A stretch of 64,000 nucleotides of DNA from Acidobacteriota bacterium (GCA_003223835.1 QHWR01000040.1:15134-79133), one strand, 5' to 3'; shown: positions 1,634-55,805, counted from the first letter of the stretch. Made by a program: numbers and translations. The notes: a model not told the origin generated them from the sequence alone.

Positions 1634-1999
1634 ATGCACGGCTGGATTCCTATCCTTATTATGTTGGCGTTCGGCACCGGCTTCGCGGTGGTCAACATCG
1701 GCCTGTCGAAGCTGGTCGGTCCGAAGAAGCCCACCCCCGAAAAGCTCGCGCCGTACGAGTGCGGCATGCCCCCCGTCGGGGACGCCCGCGAACGCCACCC
1801 GGTCAAGTTCTACCTGGTGGCCATGATCTTCCTGCTCTTCGACATCGAGGTCGCGTTCCTCTACCCGTGGGCCATGGCGCTGCGCGAGCTGCGCTGGAAC
1901 GGCTTCATCCAGTTGATCGTGTTCTTCGTCATCCTGCTCGCCGGCTACGTGTACGTCTGGCGCAAAGGGGTCCTGGACTGGGGCCACGAGCACGACTGA
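1634..1999 (+). CDS. nuoA: NADH-quinone oxidoreductase subunit A
   Basis: 121 aa. Contains …YECGMPPVGDARERHPVKFYLVAMIFLLFDIEVAFLYPWA…, the canonical NuoA/ND3 motif. First gene of the nuo cluster. Confidence 0.95.
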   Translation: MHGWIPILIMLAFGTGFAVVNIGLSKLVGPKKPTPEKLAPYECGMPPVGDARERHPVKFYLVAMIFLLFDIEVAFLYPWAMALRELRWNGFIQLIVFFVILLAGYVYVWRKGVLDWGHEHD

Positions 2000-2011
2000 C
2001 GCCGCGCATTT

Positions 2012-2479
2012 ATGGCATCCGATTTCGAAATCCCCGTTCTGACGACGACCGTGGAGAAGGTCGTCCAGTGGGCGCGCCGCTCGTCGATCTGGCCGGTCAC
2101 GTTCGGCCTCGCCTGCTGCGCGATCGAGATGATGGCGATGAGCGCGTCGCGCTACGACATTGCCCGGTTCGGGGCCGAGGTGTTTCGCGGCTCGCCGCGG
2201 CAGTCGGACCTGATGATCGTCGCCGGCCGCCTGTCGCGAAAAATGGCGCCCGTGCTCCGCCGCATCTACGACCAGATGCCGGAACCCAAGTACGTGATCT
2301 CGATGGGCGCCTGCGCGTCGATCGGCGGCGTGTTCGACAACTACGCGCTCGTCCAGGGCGTGGACCAGATCGTCCCCGTCGACGTATTCGTGCCCGGCTG
2401 CCCGCCGCGTCCCGAATCGCTCATCTACGGGATCGTCCAGCTCCAGAAGAAGATCGACCGGTCGAGGATGAATGCTTAG
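2012..2479 (+). CDS. nuoB: NADH-quinone oxidoreductase subunit B
   Basis: 155 aa. Has [10 protein letters not shown]…, SPRQSD…, MGACASIGG… and VPGCPPRPE, the N2 cluster ligands of NuoB/PSST. Confidence 0.95.
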
Positions 2480-2481
2480 TC

Positions 2482-2523
2482 GGCTTTGGGCTTTAGGCTT
2501 GAACCCTCTAGAGTCCAAGGCCT
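2482..2523. repeat. Short heptad repeat (GGCTTNN x3) with a weak inverted partner, nuoB-nuoC spacer
   Basis: ggctttg ggcttta ggcttga accctctagagtcc aaggcc. A small member of the same class of element. Confidence 0.5.
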
Positions 2524-2532
2524 GTTACACGC

Positions 2533-3099
2533 ATGGATTCCACCGCGATAGCTGAGTCGTTACGAGGGACCGTCCCCGACGGCTCCGTCGAGCCGTTTGC
2601 CGCCGCCGACGGCATGCCGACGATCTACGTCGCGCGCGAGCACGTGGTCGCCGTGTGCCGCGAGCTGCGCGATCGTCCGGCCCTGCGGTTCGCGTTCTTC
2701 GCCGACGTGACGGCCGTGGACTGGATGCCAGCCGAGCCGCGCTTCGAGGTCGTGGTGCACCTCGCGTCGTTCGGCGTCGCGGGATTCGGCGAGGCGCCGA
2801 AGCGGCTGCGCGTGAAGGTGCGCGTTCCCGGCGATCGGCCGGTCATGCCGACGCTCTCCCGCGTCTGGCCGGCCGCGAACTGGGGGGAGCGCGAAGTGTT
2901 CGACCTGTTCGGGATCGAGTTCGAGGGGCATCCGGACCTGCGGCGCGTCCTGATGCCGGAGGATTGGGAAGGCTACCCCGCGCGGAAGGACTACCCGGTC
3001 CAGATCACGATGACGCCGAAGGTGTACGAGCCGCTGCAGGTCTCGGCGGAAGAATTCGCGGCCAACGTCAAGGCCGCGCGGATCGCCGAACAGGACTGA
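2533..3099 (+). CDS. nuoC: NADH-quinone oxidoreductase subunit C
   Basis: 188 aa. Contains …WPAANWGEREVFDLFGIEFEGHPDLRRVLMPEDWEGYPARKDYP…, the NuoC/30-kDa signature. Confidence 0.93.
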   Translation: MDSTAIAESLRGTVPDGSVEPFAAADGMPTIYVAREHVVAVCRELRDRPALRFAFFADVTAVDWMPAEPRFEVVVHLASFGVAGFGEAPKRLRVKVRVPGDRPVMPTLSRVWPAANWGEREVFDLFGIEFEGHPDLRRVLMPEDWEGYPARKDYPVQITMTPKVYEPLQVSAEEFAANVKAARIAEQD

Positions 3100-3113
3100 G
3101 GACTCGAGGCCGC

Positions 3114-3689
3114 ATGACGCCGCCGCCGAGAGACGCCGTCGCCGCCGCCGAAGCGGCGTTCGCGGCCGCGGCGGCGCTGCACCAGCGCGTGCGGAGCAAT
3201 CTCGCGCCGGCGGTGGCCGCGGCGCAGGCGATCCGCGAGGCGCTCGAGCACGGCGGCAAGCTGCTCGTCTTCGGCAACGGCGGGAGCGCCGCCGACGCGC
3301 AGCACTTCGCGGCGGAGCTGGTCGGCCGGTTCATGAAGGAGCGCGCCGCGCTCGCCGCGATCGCGCTGACGACCGACACGAGCGTGATGACGAGCGTGGC
3401 GAACGACTACTCGTTCGAGCACGTGTTCGTCCGGCAGATCGAGGCGCTCGGGAGGCCCGGGGACGTCGCGTTCGGCATTTCGACGAGCGGCGAGTCGCGC
3501 AACGTGATCTCGGCGCTCGAGCGCGCGCGCGAGCGCGGGCTGAAGACGATCGCGCTGACGGGGCGCGACGGCGGCCACGCCGGCCGCGCCGCCGACCTGC
3601 ACGTGAACGTGCCGGACCAGAACACGGCCCGCGTGCAGGAAGTGCACCGCACGATTCTGCACGTGATGTGTGAATTGATCGAGACGTAA
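3114..3689 (+). CDS. gmhA: D-sedoheptulose-7-phosphate isomerase (SIS domain) embedded in the nuo operon
   Basis: ATG at 3114, in frame within track ORF 2655..3689. Contains …GGKLLVFGNGGSAADAQHFAAELVGRF… and …ALTTDTSVMTSVANDYSFEHVFVRQIEALGRPGDVAFGISTSGESRNV…, typical of GmhA. Sits between nuoC and nuoD with 14- and 19-nt gaps. Confidence 0.88.
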   Translation: MTPPPRDAVAAAEAAFAAAAALHQRVRSNLAPAVAAAQAIREALEHGGKLLVFGNGGSAADAQHFAAELVGRFMKERAALAAIALTTDTSVMTSVANDYSFEHVFVRQIEALGRPGDVAFGISTSGESRNVISALERARERGLKTIALTGRDGGHAGRAADLHVNVPDQNTARVQEVHRTILHVMCELIET

Positions 3690-3708
3690 CGGCGAGCGAA
3701 GCGAGCCC

Positions 3709-4914
3709 ATGTCCACCGAGCGAGCGAGCGTCCCAACCCGTCGCGAGACGATGACCGTGAACATGGGGCCGCAGCACCCGAGCACGCACGGGGTGCTCCG
3801 GCTCGTGCTCGAGCTGTCGGGCGAGGTGGTCGTCTCCGCCGATTCCACGATCGGATTCCTCCACACCGGCATCGAGAAGACCGCCGAGCAGAAGAAGTGG
3901 CAGCAGGTCATCCCGCTCGTCGAGCGGATGGATTACCTTGGCGCGCAGTCCAACTCGCTCGCCTTCTCGCTCTCCGTCGAGCGGCTGCTCGGCGTCGAGG
4001 CGCAGATGCCGGAGCGCGTCCGGAACATCCGCATCCTGATCGCGGAGCTGCAGCGGATCGCGAGCCACCTCGTCTGGCTCGGGACGCACGCGCTCGAAGT
4101 CGGCGCGGTGTCGGTGATGATGTACTGCTTCCGCGAGCGCGAGCTGTTGATGAACGTCAACGAGATGCTCGCGGGCTTCCGGATGTTTCCGAGCTACATC
4201 CGGATCGGCGGCCTGCGTGAAGACCTGCCGCCCGGGTTCCACGACGCCGTCAACGCGTTCCTCGCGCGGTTCCCGTCGAAGCTGAACGAGTACGAAGACC
4301 TGCTGACGAAGAATCAGATCTGGATCAAACGGACCAGCGGAGTCGGCGCGCTGTCGCGCGAGGACACGATCGCGTACGGCCTCGTCGGGCCGCTCGCGCG
4401 CGCGGCCGGCGTTCCCTACGACGTCCGCAAGGCGTTTCCGTACCTGGGCTACGACACCTACACGTTCGACGTTCCGACCGGCATCAACGGCGACGTCTAC
4501 GACCGGTACTTGGTCCGCATCGAGGAGATGCGGCAGAGCCTCCGGATCGCGGAGCAGGCGATCGCGCGCATCACGCCGCGCGGCCAGTTCGACATCCAGG
4601 ACTACCGGATCGTCCCGCCCCCGAAGGACAAGGTGTACACCGAGATGGAAGCGCTCATTCAGCACTTCCTGGTGTACTCGCAGGGGTTCACCGTGCCGGC
4701 CGGCGAGGCGTACATCCCGGTCGAGGGGCCGCGCGGCGAGCACGGGTTCTACATCGTGTCGGACGGATCGAACCGGCCGTGGCGGATCAAGGCGCGTCCG
4801 CCGGGATTCTATGCCTGTCAGGCGTTGCCGAAGATGATCGAGGGCGGACTCATCGCGGACGTCATCGCCGTCATCGGATCCACGGACGTCGTGATGGGGG
4901 ACGTGGATCGATGA
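3709..4914 (+). CDS. nuoD: NADH-quinone oxidoreductase subunit D
   Basis: 401 aa. Contains MTVNMGPQHPSTHGVLRL…IGFLHTGIEK…, and ends …GSTDVVMGDVDR. Canonical NuoD/49-kDa subunit. Confidence 0.96.
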   Translation: MSTERASVPTRRETMTVNMGPQHPSTHGVLRLVLELSGEVVVSADSTIGFLHTGIEKTAEQKKWQQVIPLVERMDYLGAQSNSLAFSLSVERLLGVEAQMPERVRNIRILIAELQRIASHLVWLGTHALEVGAVSVMMYCFRERELLMNVNEMLAGFRMFPSYIRIGGLREDLPPGFHDAVNAFLARFPSKLNEYEDLLTKNQIWIKRTSGVGALSREDTIAYGLVGPLARAAGVPYDVRKAFPYLGYDTYTFDVPTGINGDVYDRYLVRIEEMRQSLRIAEQAIARITPRGQFDIQDYRIVPPPKDKVYTEMEALIQHFLVYSQGFTVPAGEAYIPVEGPRGEHGFYIVSDGSNRPWRIKARPPGFYACQALPKMIEGGLIADVIAVIGSTDVVMGDVDR

Positions 4915-5513
4915 GCTTCCATCCGTTGATGCCGTACGGCGAGGGCTGGCACAAATCGGACCGGATCGTCGCCGCCGAAGGGCAGCCGTTCGCGTTCACG
5001 CCGGATCGCGTTCGACAGCTCGAGGAGATTTGCGGCAAGTACCCGCCCGATCGCCGGAAATCGGCGGTGCTGGCGGCGCTCTATTTCGTCCAGGAGCAGC
5101 AGGGCTATCTGACGGCGAACGCGATGCGGCACGTCGCGGAATTCCTGCGCATCACGCCCGCCGAGGTCGAAGACGTCGCGACATACTACGTGATGTTCTA
5201 CAGGGCGCCGGTCGGCCGCTACGTGCTGCAGGTCTGCCGCACGCTGTCCTGTGCGCTCGGCGGCGCCGAGCGCGTCGTCGAGGCGCTCAGCGAGAAGCTG
5301 GGGATCAAGGTCGGCGAGACGGACGCGTCCGGCATGTTCACGCTGATGGAGTTCGAGTGCCTCGGCGCGTGCGATCGCGCGCCGGTCGTGATGGTGAACA
5401 ACGAGTACTGGCACGAAAGGCTGACGCCGGAGAATTGTTCGAAGTTCGTGGATGACATCAAAGTTCGCGGTGAGGCGGCGTTGTCGGGGTGTTATCTGAA
5501 GGTCGAAAACTGA
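4911..5513 (+). CDS. nuoE: NADH-quinone oxidoreductase subunit E
   Basis: ATG at 4911 overlaps the nuoD stop (ATGA). Contains …VCRTLSCALGG… and …ECLGACDRAPVVMVN…, the 2Fe-2S ligands of NuoE/24-kDa. Confidence 0.93.
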   Translation: MSFHPLMPYGEGWHKSDRIVAAEGQPFAFTPDRVRQLEEICGKYPPDRRKSAVLAALYFVQEQQGYLTANAMRHVAEFLRITPAEVEDVATYYVMFYRAPVGRYVLQVCRTLSCALGGAERVVEALSEKLGIKVGETDASGMFTLMEFECLGACDRAPVVMVNNEYWHERLTPENCSKFVDDIKVRGEAALSGCYLKVEN

Positions 5514-5518
5514 GCCAC

Positions 5519-6817
5519 ATGGAACCTGTCCTCACCAAATACGTGCGCGAACCCAACAGCTTCGAGCTGGACTTCTTCCTGACGCACGACGGCTATCAGG
5601 GGTTGAAGAAGGCGCTCGCGATGCAGCCGAACGACGTCATCGAAATGGTGAAGGCCTCGGGGCTGCGCGGCCGCGGCGGCGCCGGCTTCCCGACCGGGAT
5701 GAAGTGGCAGTTCGTGGACAAGAAAACCCCGAACCCGCGCTACATCGCCTGCAACGCGGACGAGAGCGAGCCCGGCACGTTCAAGGATCACCTGCTGATG
5801 GAGCGCAACCCGCACCTGATGTTCGAAGGCTGCCTGATCGGCTGCTGGGCGATCGGCGCGAAGGTCGCGTACATCTACATCCGCGGCGAGTTCTATCACG
5901 TCCAGAAAATTCTCGAAGACCAGCTCGCGAAAGCTTACGCGAAGGGCTACGCCGGCAAGAACGTCATGGGCAGCGGGTGGGACTGCGACATCGTGCTCCA
6001 TCGCGGCGCCGGCGCGTACGAGGCCGGCGAGGAGACCGCGCTGATCGAATCGCTCGAAGGGAAGCGCGCGCAGCCGCGGATCAAGCCGCCGTTCCCGGCC
6101 GTCTCGGGCCTCTACAACTGCCCGACCGCGGTCAACAACGTCGAGACGCTGTGCAACCTGCCGTCGATCCTGACGAACGGCGCGGAGTGGTTCGCCAGAC
6201 TCGGCCCGGAGAAAAACGGCGGGCCGAAGCTGTTCTGCATCAGCGGGCACGTGAAGAAGCCCGGCGTCTACGAAGCGTCGATGAATACGACGCTCCAGGA
6301 CCTCATCTTCAATTACGCGGGCGGCATCCGCGACGGCCATCGGCTGAAGGCCGTGATCCCGGGCGGCTCCTCGGTACCGATCCTGATGCCGGATCAACTC
6401 GACGTGCCGGCGAGCTTCGACGCCGTGCAGAAGGCCGGCTCGATGCTCGGGTCCGCCGGGATCATCGCGATGGACGAGACCACGTGCATGGTCTGGGTCG
6501 CGAAGAACCTGATGCACTTCTACGCGCACGAGTCGTGCGGCAAGTGCACGCCGTGCCGCGAAGGCGGCGACTGGCTCTACAAGATCCTCGACCGCATCGA
6601 GCGCGGCGAAGGGGAGGTGCGCGACCTCGATTTGCTGACGAGCGTGTCGAACAACATCGCGGGCAAGACGCTGTGCGCGTTCGGCGACGCCGCAGCGACG
6701 CCGCCGCTGACGACGCTGAAAAACTTCCGCGCCGAGTACGAAGCGCACATCCGCGAGGGCCGGTGCCCGATCCCGGCGGACTGGCGCGCCGGCACGGCGC
6801 TCGCGGCCGCTCACTAG
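5519..6817 (+). CDS. nuoF: NADH-quinone oxidoreductase subunit F
   Basis: Has GLRGRGGAGFPTGMKW (FMN site), …NADESEPGTFKD… and …ESCGKCTPCREG… (4Fe-4S). Start taken at ATG 5519 (MEPVLTKY…); the track ORF begins at an alternative start, 5489. Confidence 0.95.
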   Translation: MEPVLTKYVREPNSFELDFFLTHDGYQGLKKALAMQPNDVIEMVKASGLRGRGGAGFPTGMKWQFVDKKTPNPRYIACNADESEPGTFKDHLLMERNPHLMFEGCLIGCWAIGAKVAYIYIRGEFYHVQKILEDQLAKAYAKGYAGKNVMGSGWDCDIVLHRGAGAYEAGEETALIESLEGKRAQPRIKPPFPAVSGLYNCPTAVNNVETLCNLPSILTNGAEWFARLGPEKNGGPKLFCISGHVKKPGVYEASMNTTLQDLIFNYAGGIRDGHRLKAVIPGGSSVPILMPDQLDVPASFDAVQKAGSMLGSAGIIAMDETTCMVWVAKNLMHFYAHESCGKCTPCREGGDWLYKILDRIERGEGEVRDLDLLTSVSNNIAGKTLCAFGDAAATPPLTTLKNFRAEYEAHIREGRCPIPADWRAGTALAAAH

Positions 6818-6820
6818 GGT

Positions 6821-7843
6821 ATGTCCGCGTACTTCATCGCGCACTTCCTGCTGATCTTCCTCGTCTTCAACATGCTCGTGATGTCGGCCGCGTTCATGGT
6901 GTGGATGGAGCGGAAGGTGTGCGCCTACATCCAGGACCGCGTCGGCCCGAACCGGGTCGGCGTCGAGGGACTGCTCCAGCCCTTCGCCGACGTCCTCAAG
7001 CTCCTGATGAAAGAGGAGCTGCGTCCCAAGGCGGCCGATGCGTTCCTGTTCACGATCGCGCCGATTGTCTCCGCCGCCGCCGCGTTCACCGCCTTCTCCG
7101 TCATCCCCTTCGGCAGCGAGACGACGCTGTTCGGGCTGCTCGATCGGCCGCTGCCGCTCGAGGTGACGGACGTCAACGTCGCCGTGCTGGTGATCTTCGC
7201 GATCACGTCGATGGGCGTGTACGGGATCGTGCTGGCGGGCTGGAGCTCCAACAGCAAGTACTCGCTGCTCGGCGGCCTGCGCTCGTCGGCGCAGATGATC
7301 AGCTACGAGCTGTCGTACGGCCTCGCGCTCGCGGCGGTGATCGTGCTCGGCGGCTCGCTCTCGCTGCGCGAGCTGGTGCTGAACCAGACCGGCTACTGGT
7401 TCCACGTGATCCCGCGCTGGTACATCTTCCTGCAGCCGCTCGGGTTCCTGATTTACCTGACGGCGGGCGTGGCCGAGACGAACCGCGCGCCGTTCGATTT
7501 TCCCGAAGCGGAGCAGGAACTGGTCGCCGGCTATCACACGGAGTACAGCAGCATGAGCTTCGCGATGTTCTTCCTCGCGGAGTACATCAACATGGTGACC
7601 GTGTCGGCGGTCGCGACGAGCCTGTATCTCGGCGGCTGGCTGGGCCCGATCCTGCCGTCATGGCTCGGCTGGCTGTGGTTCCTCCTCAAGGTCCTGCTGC
7701 TGCTCTTCTTCTATGTCTGGATGCGATGGACGCTGCCGCGCTACCGCTACGACCAGTTGATGGAGTTCGGGTGGAAGTGGCTGCTGCCCGCCGCGGTGGT
7801 CAACCTGATCGCGACCGCGGCGCTGGTGCTGTGGATTGGATGA
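6821..7843 (+). CDS. nuoH: NADH-quinone oxidoreductase subunit H
   Basis: 340 aa. Contains …ERKVCAYIQDRVGPNRVG… and …AETNRAPFDFPEAEQELVAGYHTEYS…, the NuoH/ND1 signature. Begins 3 nt after the nuoF stop, where nuoG would normally be. Confidence 0.95.
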   Translation: MSAYFIAHFLLIFLVFNMLVMSAAFMVWMERKVCAYIQDRVGPNRVGVEGLLQPFADVLKLLMKEELRPKAADAFLFTIAPIVSAAAAFTAFSVIPFGSETTLFGLLDRPLPLEVTDVNVAVLVIFAITSMGVYGIVLAGWSSNSKYSLLGGLRSSAQMISYELSYGLALAAVIVLGGSLSLRELVLNQTGYWFHVIPRWYIFLQPLGFLIYLTAGVAETNRAPFDFPEAEQELVAGYHTEYSSMSFAMFFLAEYINMVTVSAVATSLYLGGWLGPILPSWLGWLWFLLKVLLLLFFYVWMRWTLPRYRYDQLMEFGWKWLLPAAVVNLIATAALVLWIG

Positions 7844-7854
7844 TGCAAGATGTT

Positions 7855-7890
7855 GGCTTCGTGAACTTCGCAGCTTCGCGGGCTTCGTGC
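7855..7890. repeat. One-armed 8/9-nt repeat (core CTTCG x4) in the nuoH-nuoJ spacer
   Basis: ggcttcgtg aacttcgca gcttcgcgg gcttcgtgc. Cores at 7857, 7866, 7874 and 7883. Same core as the right arm of the 58881 element. Sits where nuoI would be expected. Confidence 0.6.
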
Positions 7891-7916
7891 CAGCGCCGTC
7901 GGCGCGTGCGTGATTG

Positions 7917-8423
7917 ATGTTCGAGTTCATTGCCTTCTACGCCTTCGCCGCAATCGCCATCATCGCGTCGCTGCTCGTCATCGGGCAGCGCAACCCGATG
8001 TACAGCGTGATCCTGCTGATCGTGTCGTTCGGCGCGCTGGCGGGGCTGTACGTGCTCCTCGACGCGCCGTTCACGGCCGTCACGCAGATCATCATCTACG
8101 CCGGCGCGATCATGGTCCTCTTCCTGTTCGTCGTCATGCTGCTGAACGTCCCGCGCGAAGAGGCGATCGCGTCGCGGCTCGGCGCGCGCGCGAGGCGGAC
8201 CGGCGCCGTCCTCTCGCTCGTGTTCACGCTCGAGATCGTCTGGGCGCTGACGCGCCTCAGCGTGATGCCCGTCTCGAGCGGCGGCGGCGGCTCGATCGGA
8301 TCGGTCGCGCGGATCGGCACGGCGCTCTTCACGACCCACGCGTTCGCGTTCGAGGCGACGTCGCTCCTCATCCTCGTCGCCATGGTCGGCGCCGTCGTCC
8401 TCGCGCGCAAGGAGCACCACTGA
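7917..8423 (+). CDS. nuoJ: NADH-quinone oxidoreductase subunit J
   Basis: MFEFIAFYAFAAIAIIASLLVIGQRNPMYSVILLIVSF…YAGAIMVLFLFVVMLLN, typical of NuoJ/ND6. ATG 7917 chosen; TTG 7914 is also possible. Confidence 0.9.
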   Translation: MFEFIAFYAFAAIAIIASLLVIGQRNPMYSVILLIVSFGALAGLYVLLDAPFTAVTQIIIYAGAIMVLFLFVVMLLNVPREEAIASRLGARARRTGAVLSLVFTLEIVWALTRLSVMPVSSGGGGSIGSVARIGTALFTTHAFAFEATSLLILVAMVGAVVLARKEHH

Positions 8424-8424
8424 C

Positions 8425-8727
8425 GTGATCTCTCTCAACCATTACCTGATTCTCTCGGGGATCCTGTTCGCCATCGGGACCGCGGGGGTGTTCCTTCGCC
8501 GCAACGTGATCACGATCCTGCTGTCGATCGAGATCATGCTGAACGCGGTGAACCTGACGTTCGTCGCGGTGGGGCGCTACCTCAACACGGTTGACGGCCA
8601 GATCATCACGTTCTTCGTGATGACGGTCGCGGCGGCGGAAGCAGCGGTGGGCCTGGCGCTGGTCATCGCACTCTTCCGCCATCGCGAGACGCTGAGCCCC
8701 GATGCATTCACCGCGCTGAAATGGTGA
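8425..8727 (+). CDS. nuoK: NADH-quinone oxidoreductase subunit K
   Basis: 100 aa with a GTG start. …LSGILFAIGTAGVFLRRNVITILLSIEIMLNAVNLTFVA… is typical of NuoK/ND4L. Confidence 0.93.
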   Translation: MISLNHYLILSGILFAIGTAGVFLRRNVITILLSIEIMLNAVNLTFVAVGRYLNTVDGQIITFFVMTVAAAEAAVGLALVIALFRHRETLSPDAFTALKW

Positions 8728-8737
8728 CGCAGCGCCG

Positions 8738-10687
<1,950 letters not shown>

Positions 10688-12281
10688 GTTCCGCTCGCGG
10701 GCGCCGTGCTGGCGCTCCTCGCCGGCGGGCGCGGCGATCGGCCGGACCGCGACCCCCTCGTGCGCGCGATCGCGGTCGTGACGTCGCTCCTCGCCTTCGC
10801 GGCGACGCTGTATCTGTGGTGGCGCTTCGACCCGGCGAGCGCGGACTTCCAGTTCATCGAGCATCGCCCGTGGATTCCGGCGTTCGGGATCGCCTACCAC
10901 CTCGGCATCGACGGCATCAGCCTGTTCCTCATCGTCCTGACCGGCTTCCTCACGCCGCTCGCGCTGCTGTCGTCGTGGCAGTCGGTGCACAAGAACTTCA
11001 AGCTGTTCTCGTTCTTCCTGCTGGCGCTCGAGACGGCGATGCTCGGCGTGTTCGCGTCGCTGGACCTCTTCCTCTTTTATGTGTTCTGGGACGCGATGGA
11101 AGGGCCGACGCCGGTCTCCGCGTTGATCCACGCCGCGACGATGGTGACGGCCGGGGTGTACATGATCGGGCGGAACGCCGTGCTGTTTTCGCGCGCGCCC
11201 GAGACGCTGGCGGTCGTCGCGGCGATCGCTCGACCTCTACGGCCTGCGGCTGCAGCACCCGCTCGACACGTGGTTCTTCCTGGCGTTCACGGTGGCCTTC
11301 GCCATCAAAGTGCCGCTGTTCCCGTTCCACACCTGGCTGCCCGACGCGCACGTCGAGGCGCCGACGGCGGGTTCGGTGATCCTGGCCGGCGTGCTGCTGA
11401 AGATGGGCACGTACGGTCTGCTCCGCTTCTCGTTCCCGCTCTTCCCCGACGCCGCCCACTACTTCGCGCCCGCGCTCGCGGTGCTCGCCGTCGTCGGCAT
11501 CATCTACGGCGCGCTGGTCGCGATGGTGCAGCCGGACTTGAAGAAGCTGGTCGCGTATTCGAGCGTGAGCCACCTGGGGTTCGTGGTGCTCGGGCTCTGC
11601 GCGCTCAACGTCAACGGCGTGCAGGGGGCCGTCTACCAGATGCTCAACCACGGCGTCAGCACGGGCGGATTGTTCATGCTCGTCGGCATGCTGTCGGACC
11701 GGCGCCACACGCGGCTGATCTCCGAGTTCGGCGGCCTCAAGGCGGTGATGCCGCGGCTCGTCGCGGCGTTCCTGCTCGTGACGCTCTCGTCGATCGCGCT
11801 GCCCGGCCTGAACGGATTCGTCGGCGAGTTCCTGATCCTGCTCGGGGCGTTCCGCTGGCATCCGAAGTTTGCCGCGTTTGCCGCGACGGGCGTGATTCTC
11901 TCGGCGGTCTACATGCTCTGGATGTTCCAGCGCGTGAACTACGGCGAGATGACGAACGAGAAGAACGCGCGGCTGCCGGACCTCTCGCCGCGCGAGTGGG
12001 CGCTCATGATTCCGACCGTCGCGATCGCCGTGCTCATGGGCGTCGCGCCGGGCATCTTCCTGCGGCCCATGGAGCCGTCGGTCGCGAAGTCGCTCGACCG
12101 GATCATGAGCGGCCAGCCGACCAGCGTGCGCGCGATCGAAACGCCGCCCGTCAGCCGCCCTCCGTCATCCGTCATCGTTTCTCGGCGCTCGGCGGCTTCC
12201 GCCTTCGCTGAAGCTTCGGCGGACCGCCGTAGCCTTGGCGGAGGCTCGTCGCGCCTCGCTCGGGCCGCAGGCGCGCCATGA
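10688..12281 (+). pseudogene. nuoM: NADH-quinone oxidoreductase subunit M, disrupted (N-terminus fused to nuoL, an internal segment replaced by a nuoL copy, frameshift)
   Basis: - N-terminal part: VPLAGAVLALLAGG…FQFIEHRPWIPAFGIAYHLGIDGISLFLIVLTGFLTPLALLSSW…FYVFWD, in the nuoL frame.
- Middle: 140 nt of nuoL sequence (11089..11228).
- C-terminal part: the NuoM sequence resumes in another frame at 11229 (LDLYGLRLQHPLDTWFFLAFTVAFAIKVPLFPFHTWLPDAHVEAPTAGSVILAGVLLKMGTYG…, track ORF 11292..12281).
- Missing: the expected ~60 aa (…AMLIPMYFLIG…). Confidence 0.85.
11089..11228 (+). repeat. 140-bp exact direct repeat, copy 2 (ectopic, inside nuoM)
   Basis: Identical to 9463..9602. The left junction shares the 10-nt microhomology ggacgcgatg with the expected nuoM sequence (FWDAM…). 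The right junction is at …gcgatcg|ctcgacctc. Confidence 0.95.
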
Positions 12282-13705
12282 TTGACTTCTACGCCGTCAT
12301 TCCGCTCCTCATCGTCGTCCTGGCGGGCGGCGCCGCGATGCTCGCGGAGGCGTTCCGTCAGCCGGGCGAGCGGATGCCGATCGCCGGGCTCGGCGTGATC
12401 GGCCTCGTGGGGGCGGCGGCCGCATCCTGCTTCCTGTGGAACACCGACGCGCAGAGCTACGGCGCGATCCGCGCGGACAACTTCGCGCTGTTCATCAACC
12501 TGATCCTCTGCGGGATCGGGATCCTGACGATGATCTTCTCGAACGACGTCGTGGAGCGCGAGGGCCTGCCGGCGGGCGAGTACTACGCGCTGACGCTCTT
12601 CGCGATCGCGGGCATGATGATGATGGCGGCGGCGACCGACCTGCTCGTCATCTTCATCGCGCTCGAGATCCTGTCGCTGGCGGTGTACGTGCTGACGGGG
12701 CTTCGCCGGTCGAGCGCGGCGGGCGCGGAAGCGGCGTTCAAGTATTTCCTGCTCGGCGCGTTCTCGAGCGCGTTCTTCCTCTACGGCATCGCGTTCGCGT
12801 TCGCGATTTCCGGATCGACCCGGCTCGATGTGATCGGGACGGCGATCGCGTCGGGTCCGGGCGGGACGCTCGCCCTCCTCGCGGTCGGACTCCTGGCGAT
12901 CGGGTTCGCCTTCAAGGTGTCGGCGGTGCCGTTCCACATGTGGACGCCCGACGCCTACGAAGGGGCGCCGACGATTGTCACGGCGTTCATGTCCACGGCG
13001 GTCAAGGCCGCGGCGTTCGGCGCGTTCGTGCGCGTCTTCCTCTCGACGCTCGAACCGCTGCAGGGGCACTGGGTGCCCGTGCTGTCCGTCATTTCCGCGC
13101 TCACGATGATCCTGGGGACGGTCGTCGGGGTCCTTCAGAGCAACATCAAGCGGATGCTCGCGTACTCGAGCATCGCGCACGCCGGTTATCTGCTGCTCGG
13201 CATCGTCGCGGCGAACGCGTCGGGCAAGGCCGCCGTCCTCTTCTATCTCGCGGTGTACGCCATCGCGAACCTCGGCGCGCTCGGCATCGTCGCGCTGCTC
13301 GGCACGGCCGACCACGAACACGATCAGCTTCGCGATTTCGCGGGTCTCTGGCAGTCGCGGCCGGGGCTCGCGGGCCTGATGACGATCTTCCTGCTGTCGC
13401 TCGGCGGCTTTCCGCCCACCGCCGGATTCATCGGCAAGTGGTACATCTTCGCGGCCGCGGTGCAGGAAGGCCACTACTGGCTCGCGATTATCGGGGTCCT
13501 CTCGAGCGTCGTCTCGGTGTTCTTCTATCTCCGGATCGTCGTGATGATGTACATGACGGAAGACGCGGCGGGTCCCGTCCGTCCGCCGATCTCGGCGACC
13601 GCGATGGCCGCTCTCGCCGTCGCGATGATCGTGACGTTCTACCTTGGAATCCTTCCCACGCGGGTGATCGACCTCGCGCTGCAGTCGATCCAGACGATCT
13701 ACTGA
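12278..13705 (+). CDS. nuoN: NADH-quinone oxidoreductase subunit N
   Basis: 475 aa. Contains …LFAIAGMMMMAAATDLLVIFIALEILSLAVYVL… and …FKVSAVPFHMWTPDAYEGAPT…, typical of NuoN/ND2. Has a 4-nt overlap with the nuoM stop. Confidence 0.94.
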   Translation: MIDFYAVIPLLIVVLAGGAAMLAEAFRQPGERMPIAGLGVIGLVGAAAASCFLWNTDAQSYGAIRADNFALFINLILCGIGILTMIFSNDVVEREGLPAGEYYALTLFAIAGMMMMAAATDLLVIFIALEILSLAVYVLTGLRRSSAAGAEAAFKYFLLGAFSSAFFLYGIAFAFAISGSTRLDVIGTAIASGPGGTLALLAVGLLAIGFAFKVSAVPFHMWTPDAYEGAPTIVTAFMSTAVKAAAFGAFVRVFLSTLEPLQGHWVPVLSVISALTMILGTVVGVLQSNIKRMLAYSSIAHAGYLLLGIVAANASGKAAVLFYLAVYAIANLGALGIVALLGTADHEHDQLRDFAGLWQSRPGLAGLMTIFLLSLGGFPPTAGFIGKWYIFAAAVQEGHYWLAIIGVLSSVVSVFFYLRIVVMMYMTEDAAGPVRPPISATAMAALAVAMIVTFYLGILPTRVIDLALQSIQTIY

Positions 13706-20468: not shown

Positions 20469-21574
20469 TGCTGCTCCTCTGGACGCTCCTGATCGCGGCG
20501 CAGACGACGTCGGCACCCGGCGCGGCCGCGCGAGCGCCGGCGCCGGCCGATCGCGTCGAGGTCGTGCTGTTCTCCGACTTTCAGTGTCCGTTCTGCGCGC
20601 TGCTCGCGCAGCCGGTCCGCCAACTGGAGACCAAAGGCGTCGAGGGCGTGGACGTCACCGTCCGGTTCAAGAATTTCCCGCTCCCGATCCACCCGCGCGC
20701 GGCGCTCGCGCACCAGGCCGCGCTCGCCGCGATGCGGCAGGGCAAGTTCTGGGAGATGCACGACCTGCTCTTCGCGAACCAGCGCAAGGCGGAGCGCGAT
20801 GACGTGCTGGGATACGCGCGGACGCTGGGGCTCGACCTCGTTCGCTTCCAAAAGGACATCGACAGCGACGAGATCAAGGCGTCGATCGCCGCCGACAAGG
20901 CGGAAGGCGACAGGCGTCGCGTCACGGGAACGCCGACCTACTACATCAACGGCAAGCCGTACGTCGGCGCGCGCTCGTACGAGCAGTTGAAGCAGCTCGT
21001 CGTCGGCGAACAGCGTCGCGCGCGCGCGCTGGCCGACGTGACCGACACGATGGTGAGCCAGGGCGCGTCGGACGCGCCCGTGATCATCGAATTGTTTGCG
21101 GACCTCGAGAGTCCCATCAGTCCGTCGGCGGTGCGCGTGGTCGACGAGGTCATGGCGCGATATCCCGCGGAGGTTCGCGTGCAGTTCCGCAACCTGCCGC
21201 TCGCGTTCCATCCCGGCGCGGCGCTCGCGCACGAAGCGGCGATGACCGCCGCGAAGGCGGGGCGGTTCTGGGACTTCGCGCGCGGCGTGCTCGCGCGGCG
21301 GCAGCCGGCGACGGACCGCGACCTGATCGCGCTCGCCGGCCGCCTCGGCCTCGACGAGGCGGCGTTCGCCGACACGCTGCGCCAGCATCGCTACGCGGCG
21401 CGCGTGGACGCCGACCTCGACGTCGCGCGCACCCGCGGCGTGCGCGGCAGTCCGGCTCTGTTCGTCAACGGCAGGCGGATCGACGGCGTTCCGACGCTGG
21501 CCGTCCTGACCCAATACGTCGAAGCAGAACTCATGGCGAGGCACGTCGGGCGCCTGGAACAACACTCATCGTGA
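20465..21574 (+). CDS. Tandem DsbA-like thioredoxin-fold protein (two domains; the second lacks the CxxC)
   Basis: ATG 20465 overlaps the upstream stop (ATGA).
- Signal: MMLLLWTLLIAAQTTSAPG.
- Domain 1: …VEVVLFSDFQCPFCALLAQP…FKNFPLPIHPRAALAHQAALAAMRQGKFWEMHDLLF…
- Domain 2: …VIIELFADLESPISPSAVRV…FRNLPLAFHPGAALAHEAAMTAAKAGRFWDF… (SPIS in place of CPFC). Confidence 0.8.
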   Translation: MMLLLWTLLIAAQTTSAPGAAARAPAPADRVEVVLFSDFQCPFCALLAQPVRQLETKGVEGVDVTVRFKNFPLPIHPRAALAHQAALAAMRQGKFWEMHDLLFANQRKAERDDVLGYARTLGLDLVRFQKDIDSDEIKASIAADKAEGDRRRVTGTPTYYINGKPYVGARSYEQLKQLVVGEQRRARALADVTDTMVSQGASDAPVIIELFADLESPISPSAVRVVDEVMARYPAEVRVQFRNLPLAFHPGAALAHEAAMTAAKAGRFWDFARGVLARRQPATDRDLIALAGRLGLDEAAFADTLRQHRYAARVDADLDVARTRGVRGSPALFVNGRRIDGVPTLAVLTQYVEAELMARHVGRLEQHSS

Positions 21575-37418: not shown

Positions 37419-37462
37419 GATTCGTTTCACGGGCTTCTTGGGACACGCAGAAGGAGCGTTTC

Positions 37463-41343
<3,881 letters not shown>

Positions 41344-41346
41344 TCA

Positions 41347-41449
41347 GTCCCTCGTCCCTAGTCCCTCGTCCCGAGTCCCTCGTCCCCAGTCCCTCGTCCC
41401 CAGTCCGGCGTCCTTGGGACCCGAGACGAGGGACTAGGGACTAGGGACT
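41347..41449. repeat. Heptad-armed hairpin: (GTCCCNN) x~10 facing (GGGACNN/TAGGGAC) x~4
   Basis: gtccctc gtcccta gtccctc gtcccga gtccctc gtcccca gtccctc gtcccca gtccggc gtccttg | gggaccc gagac gagggac tagggac tagggac. Fills the whole 90-bp spacer between the convergent TonB receptor and selA. The last four selA codons (AVPSP*) lie in the right arm. Confidence 0.9.
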
Positions 41450-42837: not shown

Positions 42838-42850
42838 GAGAGATGCGCTA

Positions 42851-42939
42851 GAATGACGAATGCCGAATGTCGAATGCCGAACGTGAACCGAGTGCCGATT
42901 CAGATCTCTTTCGGCATTCGGCATTCAGCATTCGGCATT
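42851..42939. repeat. Heptad-armed hairpin: (GAATGNC) x4 facing (GNCATTC) x4
   Basis: Left arm gaatgac gaatgcc gaatgtc gaatgcc (42851..42878). Right arm ggcattc ggcattc agcattc ggcattg (42912..42939). Lies in the divergent spacer between selA and the 42953 gene. Confidence 0.9.
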
Positions 42940-48572: not shown

Positions 48573-49550
48573 TTACAGCACGGCGCGCAATTCGTCGGCG
48601 GTGATCGCCGCCGGCCCAAAGCGGCTGACGGCGAGGCCCGCCGCGCGATTCGCCAGCCGTGCGGCATCCGCGAGCGACCCGCCCGCCGCCAGCCCGAGCG
48701 CGATCGCGGCGATGACGGTGTCCCCCGCGCCCGTCACGTCCGACACCTCCAGCGCCTCGGCCGGCAGATCGAACTCGCCGTCCGGCCCGAGCAGCCACAT
48801 CCCGTGCTCCCCCCGCGTGATCAGCACGTTCTCGCAGCGCGCGCGGTCGCGGAAGCGCTGCGCCGCCTCCCGCGCCTCCTCCTCCGACCGGATGCGCATC
48901 AGCGTGACCGCTTCCGCCTCGTGGTGATTCGGCGTCACGAGCGTCGCCCCCGCGTACCGGTCGATGTGCGGCACCTTCGGGTCCACGAGCGACGGCACGC
49001 CGCGCGCGCGCGCCGCCTCGATCGCCGCCGCCGCGACCGCGGCCGTAATCGTGCCTTTCTGATAATCCGAAATCAGCACGACGTCGGTCCGCGCCGCCAG
49101 TTCCCTCACCTTGCGCAGCACCGCATCCTGCAGCGTGCCCCCGATCTCCCGGTCGCTCTCGTAATCGATCCGCGCGACCTGCTGGTTGCGCGTCGTGACG
49201 ACCCGCAGCTTCCGCGTCGTGGACCGCTCCGCATCCGTGACGACGCCCGTCGTGCCGATCGCCATGCGCGCGAGGTCCGCGAGCAGCCGCGCCGCCGAAT
49301 CGTCCGACCCCGCGACCCCGACGACGTCGGCGTGTCCGCCGAGCGCCGCAACGTTGTGCGCCACGTTCGCCGCCCCCCCGAGCCGGTACTCCTCGTGATC
49401 GAACTGCACGACCGGCACCGGCGCTTCGGGCGAAATGCGATCGACGCGCCCGATCAGGAAATGATCGAGCATCAGATCGCCGATGACGAGGACGGATCGC
49501 CCGCGGGCGCGGTCGAGCAGCCGTTGCAGGTCAGACGGCGCGGCGCACAT
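48573..49550 (-). CDS. rfaE1: D-glycero-beta-D-manno-heptose-7-phosphate kinase (RfaE domain I only; PfkB family)
   Basis: MCAAPSDLQRLLDRARGRSVLVIGDLMLDHFLIGRVDRISPEAPVPVVQFDHEEYRLGGAANVAHNVAALGG…DVTGAGDTVIAAIALGLAAGGSL…. The kinase domain of HldE/RfaE is present, with no adenylyltransferase domain attached. Confidence 0.85.
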   Translation of the reverse strand: MCAAPSDLQRLLDRARGRSVLVIGDLMLDHFLIGRVDRISPEAPVPVVQFDHEEYRLGGAANVAHNVAALGGHADVVGVAGSDDSAARLLADLARMAIGTTGVVTDAERSTTRKLRVVTTRNQQVARIDYESDREIGGTLQDAVLRKVRELAARTDVVLISDYQKGTITAAVAAAAIEAARARGVPSLVDPKVPHIDRYAGATLVTPNHHEAEAVTLMRIRSEEEAREAAQRFRDRARCENVLITRGEHGMWLLGPDGEFDLPAEALEVSDVTGAGDTVIAAIALGLAAGGSLADAARLANRAAGLAVSRFGPAAITADELRAVL

Positions 49551-50805
49551 CGGTGACGGCGGCCATGGGTTCGGCGGCGGAGACGAGGGCGGCCGCGCCG
49601 CGCTCGGCCGCATAGGGGAGCGTGACGAGCACGAGGAACAACATCAGGAACTCGGAGTCGCCGAAATTGTATTCGAACTGTCCGGCGGCCAGCATCGCGG
49701 CGATCGCCGCGAGCGCGCCCGCGGCGAGCGAGGCGGTCGCCCCCCGGCGCCGGCGGACGAAGTCGCGCACGAGCCGCACGATGAACCAGAGCCACAGCGC
49801 GAGCGCCGGCAGTCCGCGCTCCGCCGCAATCTGCAGCGGCACATTGTGCAGGTGCGGAGCGAGCTGGTTGACGGCGCGCTTGTCGCGATAGTGCGGGTAC
49901 ACCTGGATCACCATGTCGGGTCCGACCCCGGTGAGCGGATCGTCCTTGATGATCCGCCACCCCGAGCGGATCATCGCGAGGCGGTCCGCGTTCGAGGGAT
50001 CGCTCAAGCTGAACGTCGAATAGAGGCGTTCGGTCAGGTGCGCCGGCGCGATGGCGAGGAACGCGCCGAGCGCGACCGGCAGCAGCGCGAGCAGACGGAA
50101 GTCGCGCAACAGGAACATCAGCCCGATCCCGACGCACGCGCCGACCCAGGCGCTCCGCGTCTGCGTCAGGATCAACGCGACGACGAGCGCCGGCATGACG
50201 ATCGCCGTCCACGCGCGGTTGTGCCGGGAGAACAGCAGCCGCGCCACCGCCGCGCACGCGACGAGCATCAGCAGCCCCGAGTACGTCATGTAGTGGCCGC
50301 CGAGCGACCCGCCGGGCCGCAGGCCCAGCGAATCGTAGTCGAGGATGCCGTATTCGATGATGCCGATCGTCGCGCTGATCGCGCCCATCGTGACGATGAC
50401 GTCGATCGCCAACAGGCTTCGTCGTCCGGGCAGCAACCGGTAGACGAGCGGGACGATGACGAGCAGGACGAGCTGCTTGCTGTCCACGAGGCTGACGCGC
50501 GGATCGACCGAGAAGACGGACGCGACGAGGGTCGCCGCGGCAAACGCGGCGAGCGGCCAGAACATGCCGGGGAAGCGGACGCGCTCGCGGTTCCGGACGA
50601 TCAACGCCAGCCACAAGAGCGTCGTGACGGCGAGGAAGATGTCGGCGATGGCGATCGAGAACTGCAGCGCGGCGGCGAACGCGAGCAGCACGAGGCACGC
50701 GATCCGCTCGAGGACGTCCTCGGGCAGCAGCGGCGCCGTCAGCGCGCCGTCAGCGCCCGTTCCGCCGCGGCGATTACCGTCTCTGAACTGAGCGTCGTCA
50801 GGCAT
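49531..50805 (-). CDS. O-antigen ligase family (Wzy_C / WaaL-like) membrane protein
   Basis: Start at MPDDAQFRDG… (ATG 50805). Multi-TM, with …ILTQTRSAWVGACVGIGLMFL… and …APHLHNVPLQIAAERGLPAL…, typical of O-antigen ligase/polymerase. The upstream 241 codons of the track ORF are an Arg-rich extension overlapping the next gene. Confidence 0.78.
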   Translation of the reverse strand: MPDDAQFRDGNRRGGTGADGALTAPLLPEDVLERIACLVLLAFAAALQFSIAIADIFLAVTTLLWLALIVRNRERVRFPGMFWPLAAFAAATLVASVFSVDPRVSLVDSKQLVLLVIVPLVYRLLPGRRSLLAIDVIVTMGAISATIGIIEYGILDYDSLGLRPGGSLGGHYMTYSGLLMLVACAAVARLLFSRHNRAWTAIVMPALVVALILTQTRSAWVGACVGIGLMFLLRDFRLLALLPVALGAFLAIAPAHLTERLYSTFSLSDPSNADRLAMIRSGWRIIKDDPLTGVGPDMVIQVYPHYRDKRAVNQLAPHLHNVPLQIAAERGLPALALWLWFIVRLVRDFVRRRRGATASLAAGALAAIAAMLAAGQFEYNFGDSEFLMLFLVLVTLPYAAERGAAALVSAAEPMAAVTDVRRAV

Positions 50806-51809
50806 CGGAAGTCCCCCGGCGTGCACACCCGCTGGTCGCACGGGCGGCACGGCAGGGCGGTCAGCTCGACCGACTCGGTCGGCAGCCGCGGGTCGCGCCA
50901 CGGCGCCGACTGGGCCGACAGCGTCGGACCATAGATTCCCACAATCGCGGTCCCCGTCGTCGCCGCGATGTGCAGCGGCCCCGTGTCGCCGCCGACGAAC
51001 AGCCGGCTGCGGCCGATGAGCGCGCGCAGCTCCTGCAGATCGAATTCGCCGAGATCGATGACGCGCGTCGCGTCGCCGCCGAGCGTCGCGCGCGCCGCCG
51101 ACACGATGCGCGCGGCCGCCGCGCGATCCGACGGTCCGGAGCTGACCGTCACGCGGCGCCGCGGGTCGCGGCGGGCGAGCGTCGTCACCAGTTCGACGAA
51201 CGACTCCTCCGGCCATCGCCGGAAACGATTCCCCGCGCTGACGTGGACGACGACCAGCTCGTCGCCGCGTCCGACGCCCGCGCGATCGAGGCGCGCCGCC
51301 ATCCGCGCGTCGGCGTCGCGATCGAGCGGCATCTCGACGGCATCTCGATCCGCCCGCGGCCCCCCCCCCGGCCAGCCGGGCATCGCCTCGACGAGATCCC
51401 ACTGGTTCGCGACCGAATGGCGTGCCCTCAGCTCGCGCGGCCGTTTCACGACGCGCGTGTACATCCACTCGCGGCCGGGGATCGCGTAGCCGATGCGCTC
51501 GCGCGCGCCGCTCGCCCACGTGAGCCACGCGCTCCGCGGGCCTCCGTGGAGATCGAGCGCGACGTCGAACCGTTCGGCGCGCAACCGCCGCGCCAGCGCC
51601 AGGTCGTCGAACAGCCGTCGCGCGCCGCGCGACCGCGGCACGACGATGACCTCGTTCAGATGCGGGTTGTTGATCACCACCGGCGCCGCGTCGCGCTCGA
51701 CGAGAAAGGTGAGACGCGCCCCGGGATACGCCCGCTTCAGCGCGCCGAGGAGCGGCGTCGTGAAGACGACGTCGCCGATCAGCCGCAGCCGGAGCAGGAG
51801 GATCTTCAG
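50739..51809 (-). CDS. Glycosyltransferase family 9 (LPS heptosyltransferase)
   Basis: …KILLLRLRLIGDVVFTTPLLGALKRAYPGARLTFLV… and …LFVGGDTGPLHIAATTGTAIVGIYGPT…, the GT9 signature. The start is uncertain: there is no ATG/GTG at the conserved (M)KILL position. Either CTG at 51809 or upstream GTGs overlapping trm112 could serve. Confidence 0.8.
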   Translation of the reverse strand: MKILLLRLRLIGDVVFTTPLLGALKRAYPGARLTFLVERDAAPVVINNPHLNEVIVVPRSRGARRLFDDLALARRLRAERFDVALDLHGGPRSAWLTWASGARERIGYAIPGREWMYTRVVKRPRELRARHSVANQWDLVEAMPGWPGGGPRADRDAVEMPLDRDADARMAARLDRAGVGRGDELVVVHVSAGNRFRRWPEESFVELVTTLARRDPRRRVTVSSGPSDRAAAARIVSAARATLGGDATRVIDLGEFDLQELRALIGRSRLFVGGDTGPLHIAATTGTAIVGIYGPTLSAQSAPWRDPRLPTESVELTALPCRPCDQRVCTPGDFRCLTTLSSETVIAAAERALTAR

Positions 51810-51976
51810 GGCTCGATGGTCGCTTCGTCGATCAGCATCACCGGGATGTCGTCCTTGATCGGATACACCCGGCGGCACTGCCCGCACTTCAACGCGGTGC
51901 CGTTCTTCACGAGGTCGACCTTCGTCTTGCAGTTGGGACACGCGAGGATCTCGAGCAGCTCCGGATCGATGGCCAT
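51806..51976 (-). CDS. Trm112/YcaR-family small zinc-ribbon protein (56 aa)
   Basis: Absent from the track (<60 aa). The minus strand from ATG 51976 gives MAIDPELLEILACPNCKTKVDLVKNGTALKCGQCRRVYPIKDDIPVMLIDEATIEP*, the UPF0434/Trm112 pattern (CPxC…CxxC…YPI.DGIPVML). Confidence 0.85.
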   Translation of the reverse strand: MAIDPELLEILACPNCKTKVDLVKNGTALKCGQCRRVYPIKDDIPVMLIDEATIEP

Positions 51977-52086
51977 AAGCTCCTGCCGACGCTCTCGTTT
52001 TGTCCGTGTTGATCCCTGTTCTTCCGTGGCCAGTATTCCATAAGTTGCGCCGGATAACCTGCAGCCGTCATTATAGTCAGCGACGC

Positions 52087-55548: not shown

Positions 55549-55693
55549 GCTGACGTGGTGACGCGGCCGGTTTGCGCGAACTGCCCGGATCCGCTAGACT
55601 TAACCTTTTGCCGACGTGCCGGCGGGCCATGCCCTTGTGATCCATCTCCAGCAACGGCGCGGGTTCTGTCATCCTTAACGAGCGGTCCGGTGG

Positions 55694-55768
55694 TGGGGCG
55701 TGGCCAAGCGGTAAGGCGCGGGACTTTGGATCCCGTATTCGGAGGTTCGAATCCTCCCGCCCCAACCA
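55694..55768 (+). tRNA. tRNA-Gln (anticodon UUG)
   Basis: 75 nt, folded by hand:
- Acceptor stem: TGGGGCG / CGCCCCA
- Anticodon arm: CGGGA-CTTTGGA-TCCCG (UUG)
- T arm: GGAGG-TTCGAAT-CCTCC
- Discriminator A and an encoded CCA
Sits between ispE and prs as in many Gram-negative genomes. Confidence 0.92.
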
Positions 55769-55805
55769 GCATTGGGGTGTCGGTACGCTACTAGAATCGC
55801 TGCCG

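Follow-up and report, generated by a model that had tools for sequence, protein, structure and literature searches.

A complex I operon without nuoG and nuoI, and with an apparent gmhA gene between nuoC and nuoD, in a Vicinamibacterales (Acidobacteriota) lineage

A 64,000-nucleotide stretch of DNA from an Acidobacteriota bacterium (GCA_003223835.1, QHWR01000040.1:15134-79133; the whole stretch is called the window below) carries, at 1634-13705 on the plus strand, the main operon for complex I (NDH-1) in a bacterium of the Vicinamibacterales whose genome has a G+C content of 68%. Gene assignment with Pfam and NCBIfam gives the order nuoA-B-C-gmhA-D-E-F-H-J-K-L-M-N, which encodes 12 of the 14 complex I core subunits and lacks nuoG and nuoI, and this gene order is a genuine, lineage-wide variant. 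With a probability of roughly three in four, the enzyme is a conventional complex I of 14 subunits, two of which (NuoG and NuoI) are encoded apart from the operon, in which a genuine gmhA rides as a passenger. The enzyme family is ordinary complex I; its operon here matches neither the canonical set of 14 genes nor the 11-subunit type without nuoE, nuoF and nuoG. The window proteins correspond to the consecutive GenBank accessions PYR79107-PYR79113, assigned to a 79.6-kb contig of a metagenome-assembled genome labelled 'Acidobacteria bacterium'; their 90%-identity cluster mates carry a Vicinamibacterales label, and the GenBank record already annotates these genes correctly.

The encoded subunits look functional, judged by their motifs: the N2 cysteines of NuoB, the N1a cysteines of NuoE and the flavin mononucleotide (FMN) and N3 motifs of NuoF are all intact. 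The NADH-oxidising module is represented by NuoE and NuoF, both of which score above the cut-offs of their NCBIfam models and hold the cofactor motifs, and the N2/quinone site by NuoB and NuoD. Every member of the membrane arm (NuoA, H, J, K, L, M and N) was detected, nuoL and nuoM being intact in the independent contigs L086 and L088. An initial annotation, made by a model from the sequence of the window, had given the order with gmhA after nuoC, which the Pfam and NCBIfam assignments bear out, and its junctions proved exact: the nuoF stop (6815-6817) is separated by 3 nt from the nuoH ATG (6821), the 70-nt nuoH-nuoJ spacer contains four CTTCG copies, and gmhA lies 14 nt from nuoC and 19 nt from nuoD. 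The ATG of nuoE overlaps the nuoD stop.

Neither missing gene was found near the operon; of their products, NuoG carries clusters N1b, N4 and N5, and NuoI two [4Fe-4S] clusters (N6a/N6b). Three NuoG and four NuoI queries, taken from standard operons, gave only noise in tblastn against the 64-kb window even at E <= 10, the ferredoxin motif CxxCxxCxxxC occurs nowhere in its six frames, and nuoG and nuoI are both absent from about 50 kb downstream and 2.7 kb upstream of the operon. The nuoH-nuoJ spacer was considered as a nuoI remnant, a structured RNA or a conserved element and was rejected as any of these: it has no stable fold (folding z = +1.78) and no counterpart in Rfam, and its length ranges from 3 to 182 nt among relatives. 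Its repeat was scored by Tandem Repeats Finder at period 9, 3.7 copies and score 36.

The arrangement is not an assembly artefact, because the same junctions recur in independent contigs and are conserved in relatives. Independent contigs were retrieved by exact-protein look-up (L088-L095 came via NuoA, an identical copy of which lies on 22 independent contigs), and the C-gmhA-D, F-H and H-J junctions are the same, and ungapped, on at least 11 independently assembled metagenome contigs (JGI, ENA) of the same population. Among those compared (L081-L083 and L084-L087) the closest are 99.3-99.9% identical to the window, and L085 and L087 are 96-99% identical. The F-H junction is repeated in L081, L082 and L083 (99.4-99.8% identity, ungapped) and in L088-L091. 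Whether nuoG or nuoI would turn up at these positions in independent assemblies or relatives was a test set beforehand, and neither is present there.

The damage seen in nuoL and nuoM, by comparison, consists of two errors of the source assembly, since in independent assemblies nuoL and nuoM are whole and distinct genes. At 10688/10689 the end and stop of nuoL and the start of nuoM are missing, and nuoL reads in frame into nuoM. Where the window passes abruptly into nuoM, L081 reads on as ...FVGAVMILGWY; a scaffold gap of 66 N marks exactly this point in L084, L081 ends and L086 starts there, and in L088 nuoL is complete (644 aa), with nuoM as a gene of its own after it. Within nuoM, the 140 nt at 11089-11228 duplicate nuoL 9463-9602 exactly; they stand in place of 167 nt of nuoM and cause a frameshift. 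L086 and L084 are intact at that site, reading ...FYVFWDAMLIPMYFLIGIWGYERR... The L-M-N order of the initial annotation is true of the organism and is broken in the window sequence by these two errors.

A scan of a genome collection with NuoH gave 80 loci, the 14 closest of which (NuoH 67-85% identical, G+C content 63-69%) are taken as the relatives. They come from Acidobacteriota-labelled metagenome-assembled genomes (MAGs), save one mislabelled locus, include one complete chromosome of 5.1 Mb (L003, OY969918.1) as well as a contig of 3.7 Mb, and fall together in a single clade of the neighbour-joining tree built from NuoD+F+H. All 14 have nuoJ directly after nuoH (gaps of 3-182 nt), and all 13 that show the junction have nuoH directly after nuoF (gaps of 3-200 nt; L014 starts inside nuoH). 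No NuoG or NuoI is encoded within 10 kb on either side of nuoH in the 14 relatives. The initial annotation had regarded the keeping of E and F without G and I as an unfamiliar pattern; it is present throughout the lineage (14/14) and in two other phyla. A check on whether the order is both widespread and already characterised came out divided: it is widespread in the lineage, and a literature search returned no paper on a nuo operon lacking G and I or on gmhA inside a nuo operon.

Other operons of this family are also incomplete. Terriglobia loci read A-C-D-E-F-G-H-J-K-L-M-N, without B and I (L019-L021, L039 and L041; listed with them are L027, L071 and L181), with nuoC about 150 nt after nuoA and nuoJ about 30-135 nt after nuoH. 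Pyrinomonadaceae loci read A-B-C-D-E-F-G-H-J-K-L-M-N, with G kept and I absent, and a KSB1 locus lacks B and I. Every other Acidobacteriota operon of this type that was sampled is without nuoI. The Latescibacterota locus L027 has no B, G or I and carries a HAD hydrolase between F and H (L027:9390-9980), and the Armatimonadota locus L063 reads nuoA-E-F-H-J-K-L-M-N, without B, C, D, G and I; E and F kept with G and I absent thus occurs in three phyla of a small sample, two of them beyond Acidobacteriota. An operon that lacks nuoB, or nuoB, C and D, cannot supply a whole enzyme by itself, so unlinked subunit genes must be normal in this operon family. A 2025 survey found a complete complex I in most Acidobacteriota species, and a mixture of split and single-cluster nuo arrangements in most Acidobacteriota clades (PMC12361115).

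Several of these loci have features of their own. The L027 HAD protein was tried as GmhB and rejected, its best matches being generic HAD-IA and YjjG-type hydrolases. In the Terriglobia loci L019 and L041 a second nuoN lies some 2.9 kb downstream in convergent orientation, and in the metagenome locus L181 nuoB adjoins nuoI, the pair missing from Terriglobia operons. In L216 (ENA contig_29698, 285 kb, long-read) a Terriglobia-type nuo operon is fragmented by frameshifts, with nuoG in pieces of 176 aa and 431 aa, and truncated Nuo proteins in databases can therefore be sequencing artefacts.

Candidates for the missing nuoI were sought by scanning metagenomes with a GC-rich DNA pattern that codes for CIFCGxCxEACP, a NuoI motif. 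Of 120 loci obtained, 73 have nuoI beside nuoH or nuoJ and 31 are too short to judge; nuoI stands alone, flanked on each side by 1 kb or more of DNA without nuo genes, in 16 of the 89 decidable loci. These orphan genes fall into two sequence families, one with a G+C content of 55-62% and a Terriglobia-like composition, the other (family A; L121, L125, L152, L150, L130, L117, L213 and L215) with 65-68%. The eight family A proteins are closely similar and 141-156 aa long; two that were scanned score 142-146 bits with TIGR01971 (cut-off 113), and that of L121 scores 163.6 with NF004537 (cut-off 163). The tetranucleotide correlation of L121 with the 50 kb of the window outside the nuo genes is 0.975, against 0.947-0.978 for the relatives L001-L013 (except L012, at 0.897) and at most 0.957, below L121, for a non-relative (a Frankiaceae locus). 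Family A would then belong to genomes of this lineage, as far as G+C content and tetranucleotide similarity can tell, and is suggestive of a stand-alone nuoI in the lineage. In the six annotated family A loci, nuoI adjoins a LytS-like sensor gene, a LytTR response regulator gene and/or a gene for a bifunctional homocysteine S-methyltransferase/methylenetetrahydrofolate reductase; it is unusual for a solitary gene of a complex I subunit to have a two-component system as its neighbour. A search with the NuoI of L024 led to Zixibacteria-like proteins and to none from this lineage.

Searches for NuoG led to other lineages. A profile built from nine Acidobacteriota NuoG sequences found only Terriglobales among its best 120 matches. 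A phmmer search with a Terriglobales NuoG against 1.84 billion representatives, combined with a composition filter and two cluster look-ups, had Armatimonadota, Thermaerobacter, Dormibacteraeota and Planctomycetota among its matches and none from this lineage. One high-GC candidate, P0253, was rejected as a fragment of a frameshift-ridden, in-operon nuoG from a long-read assembly.

The gene embedded between nuoC and nuoD looks like a genuine phosphoheptose isomerase gene, a working gmhA riding in the operon. As the initial annotation had proposed, its product is assigned to GmhA by TIGR00441, narrowly (212.8, equivalog cut-off 209.45), by structure matches and by invariant residues; in GenBank it is entered as D-sedoheptulose 7-phosphate isomerase (PYR79109.1). 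Among solved structures, the top 13 matches are without exception phosphoheptose isomerases, led by 5i01 (E 4e-55); DiaA structures come after these (E 2e-39), and the DiaA model NF008138 gives 142.3 against a cut-off of 352. His64, Glu68, Gln175 and His183, which we take to be the zinc-binding and catalytic H61, E65, Q172 and H180 of E. coli GmhA, are invariant in eight gmhA copies. Orthologues in L002, L012 and L011 score below the TIGR00441 cut-off (209.0, 198.6 and 163.6, respectively). Later genes of the heptose pathway were reported by the initial annotation to lie 45 kb away, and both are indeed there: the kinase of RfaE domain I, which acts in the step after GmhA, and a glycosyltransferase family 9 (GT9) gene.

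The insertion is found in 8 of 13 loci, namely the window and L001, L002, L004, L007, L010, L011 and L012, with GmhA identities to the window of 72, 72, 69, 61, 61, 54 and 52%, respectively, for the last seven. This identity falls in step with the operon tree, and gmhA looks like an enzyme gene passed on by vertical descent. L003, L005, L006, L008 and L013 have neither the gene nor remnants of it, and none of the 66 other loci of the first NuoH scan has the insertion. The simplest history would be a single insertion in an ancestor and some three later losses, and since 5 of 13 relatives do without the insertion, the linkage between gmhA and the nuo genes is dispensable. Co-transcription of gmhA with the nuo genes is suggested by the 14- and 19-nt gaps and by promoter-like and terminator-like sites inside the operon that show no excess over a shuffled background. 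The coupling of lipopolysaccharide-heptose synthesis to complex I transcription that the initial annotation put forward would be a reading of these two gaps.

Compared with known systems, the operon has the same subunit families and relative order as canonical nuo/nqo operons (E. coli nuoA-N, Thermus thermophilus nqo1-14), with the NuoB, E and F motifs intact, and differs from them in having no nuoG between F and H, no nuoI between H and J, and gmhA between nuoC and nuoD. Dispersed complex I gene sets appear to be the closest precedents. In Rhodothermus marinus, nqo8 and nqo9 lie outside two operons, inside which pcd and nhaD are co-transcribed; Aquifex aeolicus has dispersed complex I genes, and Paracoccus and Rhodobacter operons contain unidentified reading frames. 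The enzyme is complete nonetheless in dispersed sets such as that of Rhodothermus. The present operon resembles Rhodothermus-type sets in that core subunit genes, including that of the NuoI homologue (nqo9), would lie away from the operon and unrelated genes stand between nuo genes. It differs in that the pair presumed to be unlinked is G and I, not H and I, that the passenger is an enzyme of lipopolysaccharide (LPS) heptose synthesis, and that the system is known from its genes alone. With the Terriglobia and Pyrinomonadaceae operons it shares a family in the NuoD+F+H tree and a nuoH followed directly by nuoJ without nuoI; unlike here, those operons keep nuoG and carry no gmhA, and the Terriglobia ones are without nuoB. 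Complex I-like enzymes of 11 subunits, without NuoE, F and G, are described (PMC11238625; PMC4453560); the present cluster also lacks nuoG, whereas here NuoE and NuoF are present and intact and nuoI, which the 11-subunit type keeps, is absent. The GmhA protein resembles known GmhA (TIGR00441; PDB 5i01, 1tk9, 1x92, 2i22) in length, SIS fold family and its conserved His/Glu/Gln/His site, and is unlike it in being encoded in a respiratory operon and not with LPS genes, and in scoring barely above the cut-off, with most orthologues below.

In the reading we favour, the operon order is fixed in the lineage, the genes for NuoG and NuoI would lie elsewhere, and the two proteins would be added to the complex once translated. 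nuoI would probably be a stand-alone gene, and we infer that nuoG is present elsewhere in the genome. gmhA would have been inserted between nuoC and nuoD in the lineage ancestor, would probably be co-transcribed, and would later have been lost from this position in some descendants; its product would supply ADP-heptose and LPS-core synthesis, and the explanation needs no mechanistic tie to respiration. Several points weigh against this reading. The link between family A and Vicinamibacterales is one of G+C content and tetranucleotide composition, an imperfect measure by which a Frankiaceae locus also comes high (0.957). No nuoG or nuoI has been placed in a genome carrying this operon, and for nuoG there is no lineage candidate, three large protein searches and one representative search having given other lineages only. 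The case for gmhA co-transcription is one of spacing. Many Chloroflexi genome sets lack only NuoG (PMC4453560), and a genome-wide absence of nuoG is therefore conceivable.

The operon could instead encode a dependent second isozyme to which a complete nuo operon elsewhere lends NuoG and NuoI, which we regard as unlikely. The second nuoN of L019 and L041 indicates that two nuo clusters per genome occur in the phylum, and some Acidobacteria have, in UniProt naming, numbered paralogues of several Nuo subunits. High-GC loci with linked nuoH-nuoI-nuoJ are also fairly similar in composition to the whole window (L113, r = 0.958; L158, r = 0.939), but the best composition match among nuoI loci is the orphan L121 and not a linked gene. 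Moreover, subunit mixing between complex I clades is reported to be rare (Spero et al., PMC4453560), and no second nuo cluster lies in the 64-kb window or within 10 kb on either side of nuoH in the 14 relatives. It is very improbable that the enzyme is truly without NuoG and/or NuoI, as a 12-subunit complex with another electron route from NuoEF to NuoB or another partner. In all solved complex I structures the electron path from N3 to N2 runs via the clusters of NuoG and NuoI, and nothing is unusual in the lengths and motifs of NuoB, D, E and F, none of which has an additional iron-sulphur (Fe-S) domain as a substitute. The absence of both genes from the flanks of the operon, the conservation of the arrangement in relatives and the recorded Chloroflexi gene sets without only NuoG (PMC4453560) are in favour of such an enzyme; against it are the bona fide stand-alone nuoI genes with a lineage-like composition and the related operons from which nuoB, or nuoB, C and D, are absent and which are not self-sufficient either. 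The initial annotation had implied an enzyme of this kind, and that implication is not upheld, given the lineage-wide order, the nuoI-less Acidobacteriota operons and the stand-alone nuoI genes. A more far-reaching possibility, itself a long shot, is that NuoG is missing genome-wide in Vicinamibacterales (perhaps also in the Latescibacterota and Armatimonadota loci with an F-H arrangement) and NuoEF docks via another Fe-S adaptor, or that the GmhA-like protein acts in complex I assembly or in coupling heptose synthesis to respiration.

Loss of nuoG and nuoI in this assembly only, by misassembly or deletion, would be in keeping with the two local errors in nuoL and nuoM on the same contig, but it has practically no probability left: the F-H and H-J junctions are identical across many independently assembled contigs and are conserved in 14 related MAGs, long-read complete assemblies among them, which already refutes it. 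As for the embedded SIS protein, its position inside the operon, held across a deep lineage, and the scores of most orthologues just under the TIGR00441 cut-off could point to a complex I accessory or assembly factor, or to a DiaA-like regulator, in place of a housekeeping GmhA. The invariant catalytic and zinc-binding residues, the 13 of 13 best structures that are phosphoheptose isomerases, the DiaA score far under its cut-off, the relatives (5/13) that keep the operon without the gene and the later heptose-pathway genes in the window make such a role highly doubtful.

Table 1. Features of the complex I operon, heptose-pathway genes of the window, and examples of family A nuoI genes. Positions are those of the window unless a locus is named.
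Feature	Position	Strand	Evidence and remarks
nuoA	1634..1999	+	PF00507, E 1.3e-38; identical protein on 22 independent contigs
nuoB	2012..2479	+	PF01058; NF005012 252.7 bits; four N2-cluster cysteines (CCAIEM, GACA, GCPP)
nuoC	2533..3099	+	PF00329, E 6e-46
gmhA, apparent D-sedoheptulose-7-phosphate isomerase, 191 aa	3114..3689	+	SIS_2, TIGR00441
nuoD	3709..4914	+	PF00346, E 3e-112
nuoE, 200 aa	4911..5513	+	PF01257; TIGR01958 171 bits (cut-off 142); N1a cysteines; gene call in L081
nuoF, 432 aa	5519..6817	+	TIGR01959 607.7 (cut-off 558.65); Pfam; FMN motif GRGGAGFPTG, N3 cysteines
nuoF-nuoH junction, 3 nt	6818..6820	.	sequence; nuoG site in standard operons
nuoH	6821..7843	+	PF00146, E 1.5e-125
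nuoH-nuoJ spacer, 70 nt	7844..7913	.	four CTTCG copies; nuoI site in standard operons
nuoJ	7914..8423	+	PF00499; TTG at 7914, gene callers take ATG 7917 (gene call in L081)
nuoK	8425..8727	+	PF00420
nuoL	8738..10688	+	PF00662, PF00361; last ~12 codons and stop absent in this assembly
nuoM, N-terminal part	10689..11098	+	fused in frame to nuoL by misjoin 10688/10689
140-nt nuoL copy inside nuoM	11089..11228	+	assembly artefact; 100% direct repeat of 9463-9602
nuoM, C-terminal part	11229..12281	+	PF00361; frame switch in third-codon-position GC (GC3)
nuoN	12278..13705	+	PF00361; identical protein on 4 independent contigs
heptose-7-phosphate kinase (RfaE/HldE domain I)	48573..49643	-	TIGR02198 353.6 (cut-off 345); PfkB
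GT9 heptosyltransferase	50739..52067	-	PF01075; heptosyltransferase models below cut-off
family A nuoI	L121:5887-6357	-	
family A nuoI	L125:5897-6346	-	
family A nuoI	L152:5595-6041	+	

Outside the operon and the heptose genes, the window contains a 4691-aa open reading frame (20803-34878, plus strand) with 31 Big_5 Ig-like repeats and LVIVD, bacterial TSP3 and Big_7 domains; its product is presumably a giant protein of the cell surface or an adhesin. A gene for an outer-membrane protein resembling TonB-dependent receptors (CarboxypepD_reg, Plug, OMP_b-brl_4; 37421-41343, plus strand) is split into 37421-38929 and 38428-41343 by a frameshift, which is either an assembly error or the mark of a pseudogene. 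A SelA selenocysteine synthase gene (41434-42924, minus strand; PF03841, E 1e-132) is present, and the organism therefore probably makes selenoproteins. A tRNA gene (55694-55765, plus strand; RF00005, 68.6 bits) lies just upstream of a ribose-phosphate pyrophosphokinase gene and inside the long open reading frame 55641-56771, so the true start of the pyrophosphokinase lies further downstream.

Calls based on operons or KEGG modules would score an abundant soil order as complex I-incomplete when its genes are most likely just unlinked. Splitting of the nuo cluster is systematic in Acidobacteriota and neighbouring phyla, whose lineages exported different Fe-S subunits: I alone, B and I, G and I, or B, C, D, G and I. 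The relevance is to annotation and operon evolution, and would be much greater if nuoG were truly absent genome-wide. A modest question that follows is how stoichiometry and assembly are handled when two subunits of the electron wire are transcribed separately. The gmhA insertion offers a clean, datable case of a housekeeping enzyme gene in a respiratory operon, and could serve as a marker of synteny for the lineage.

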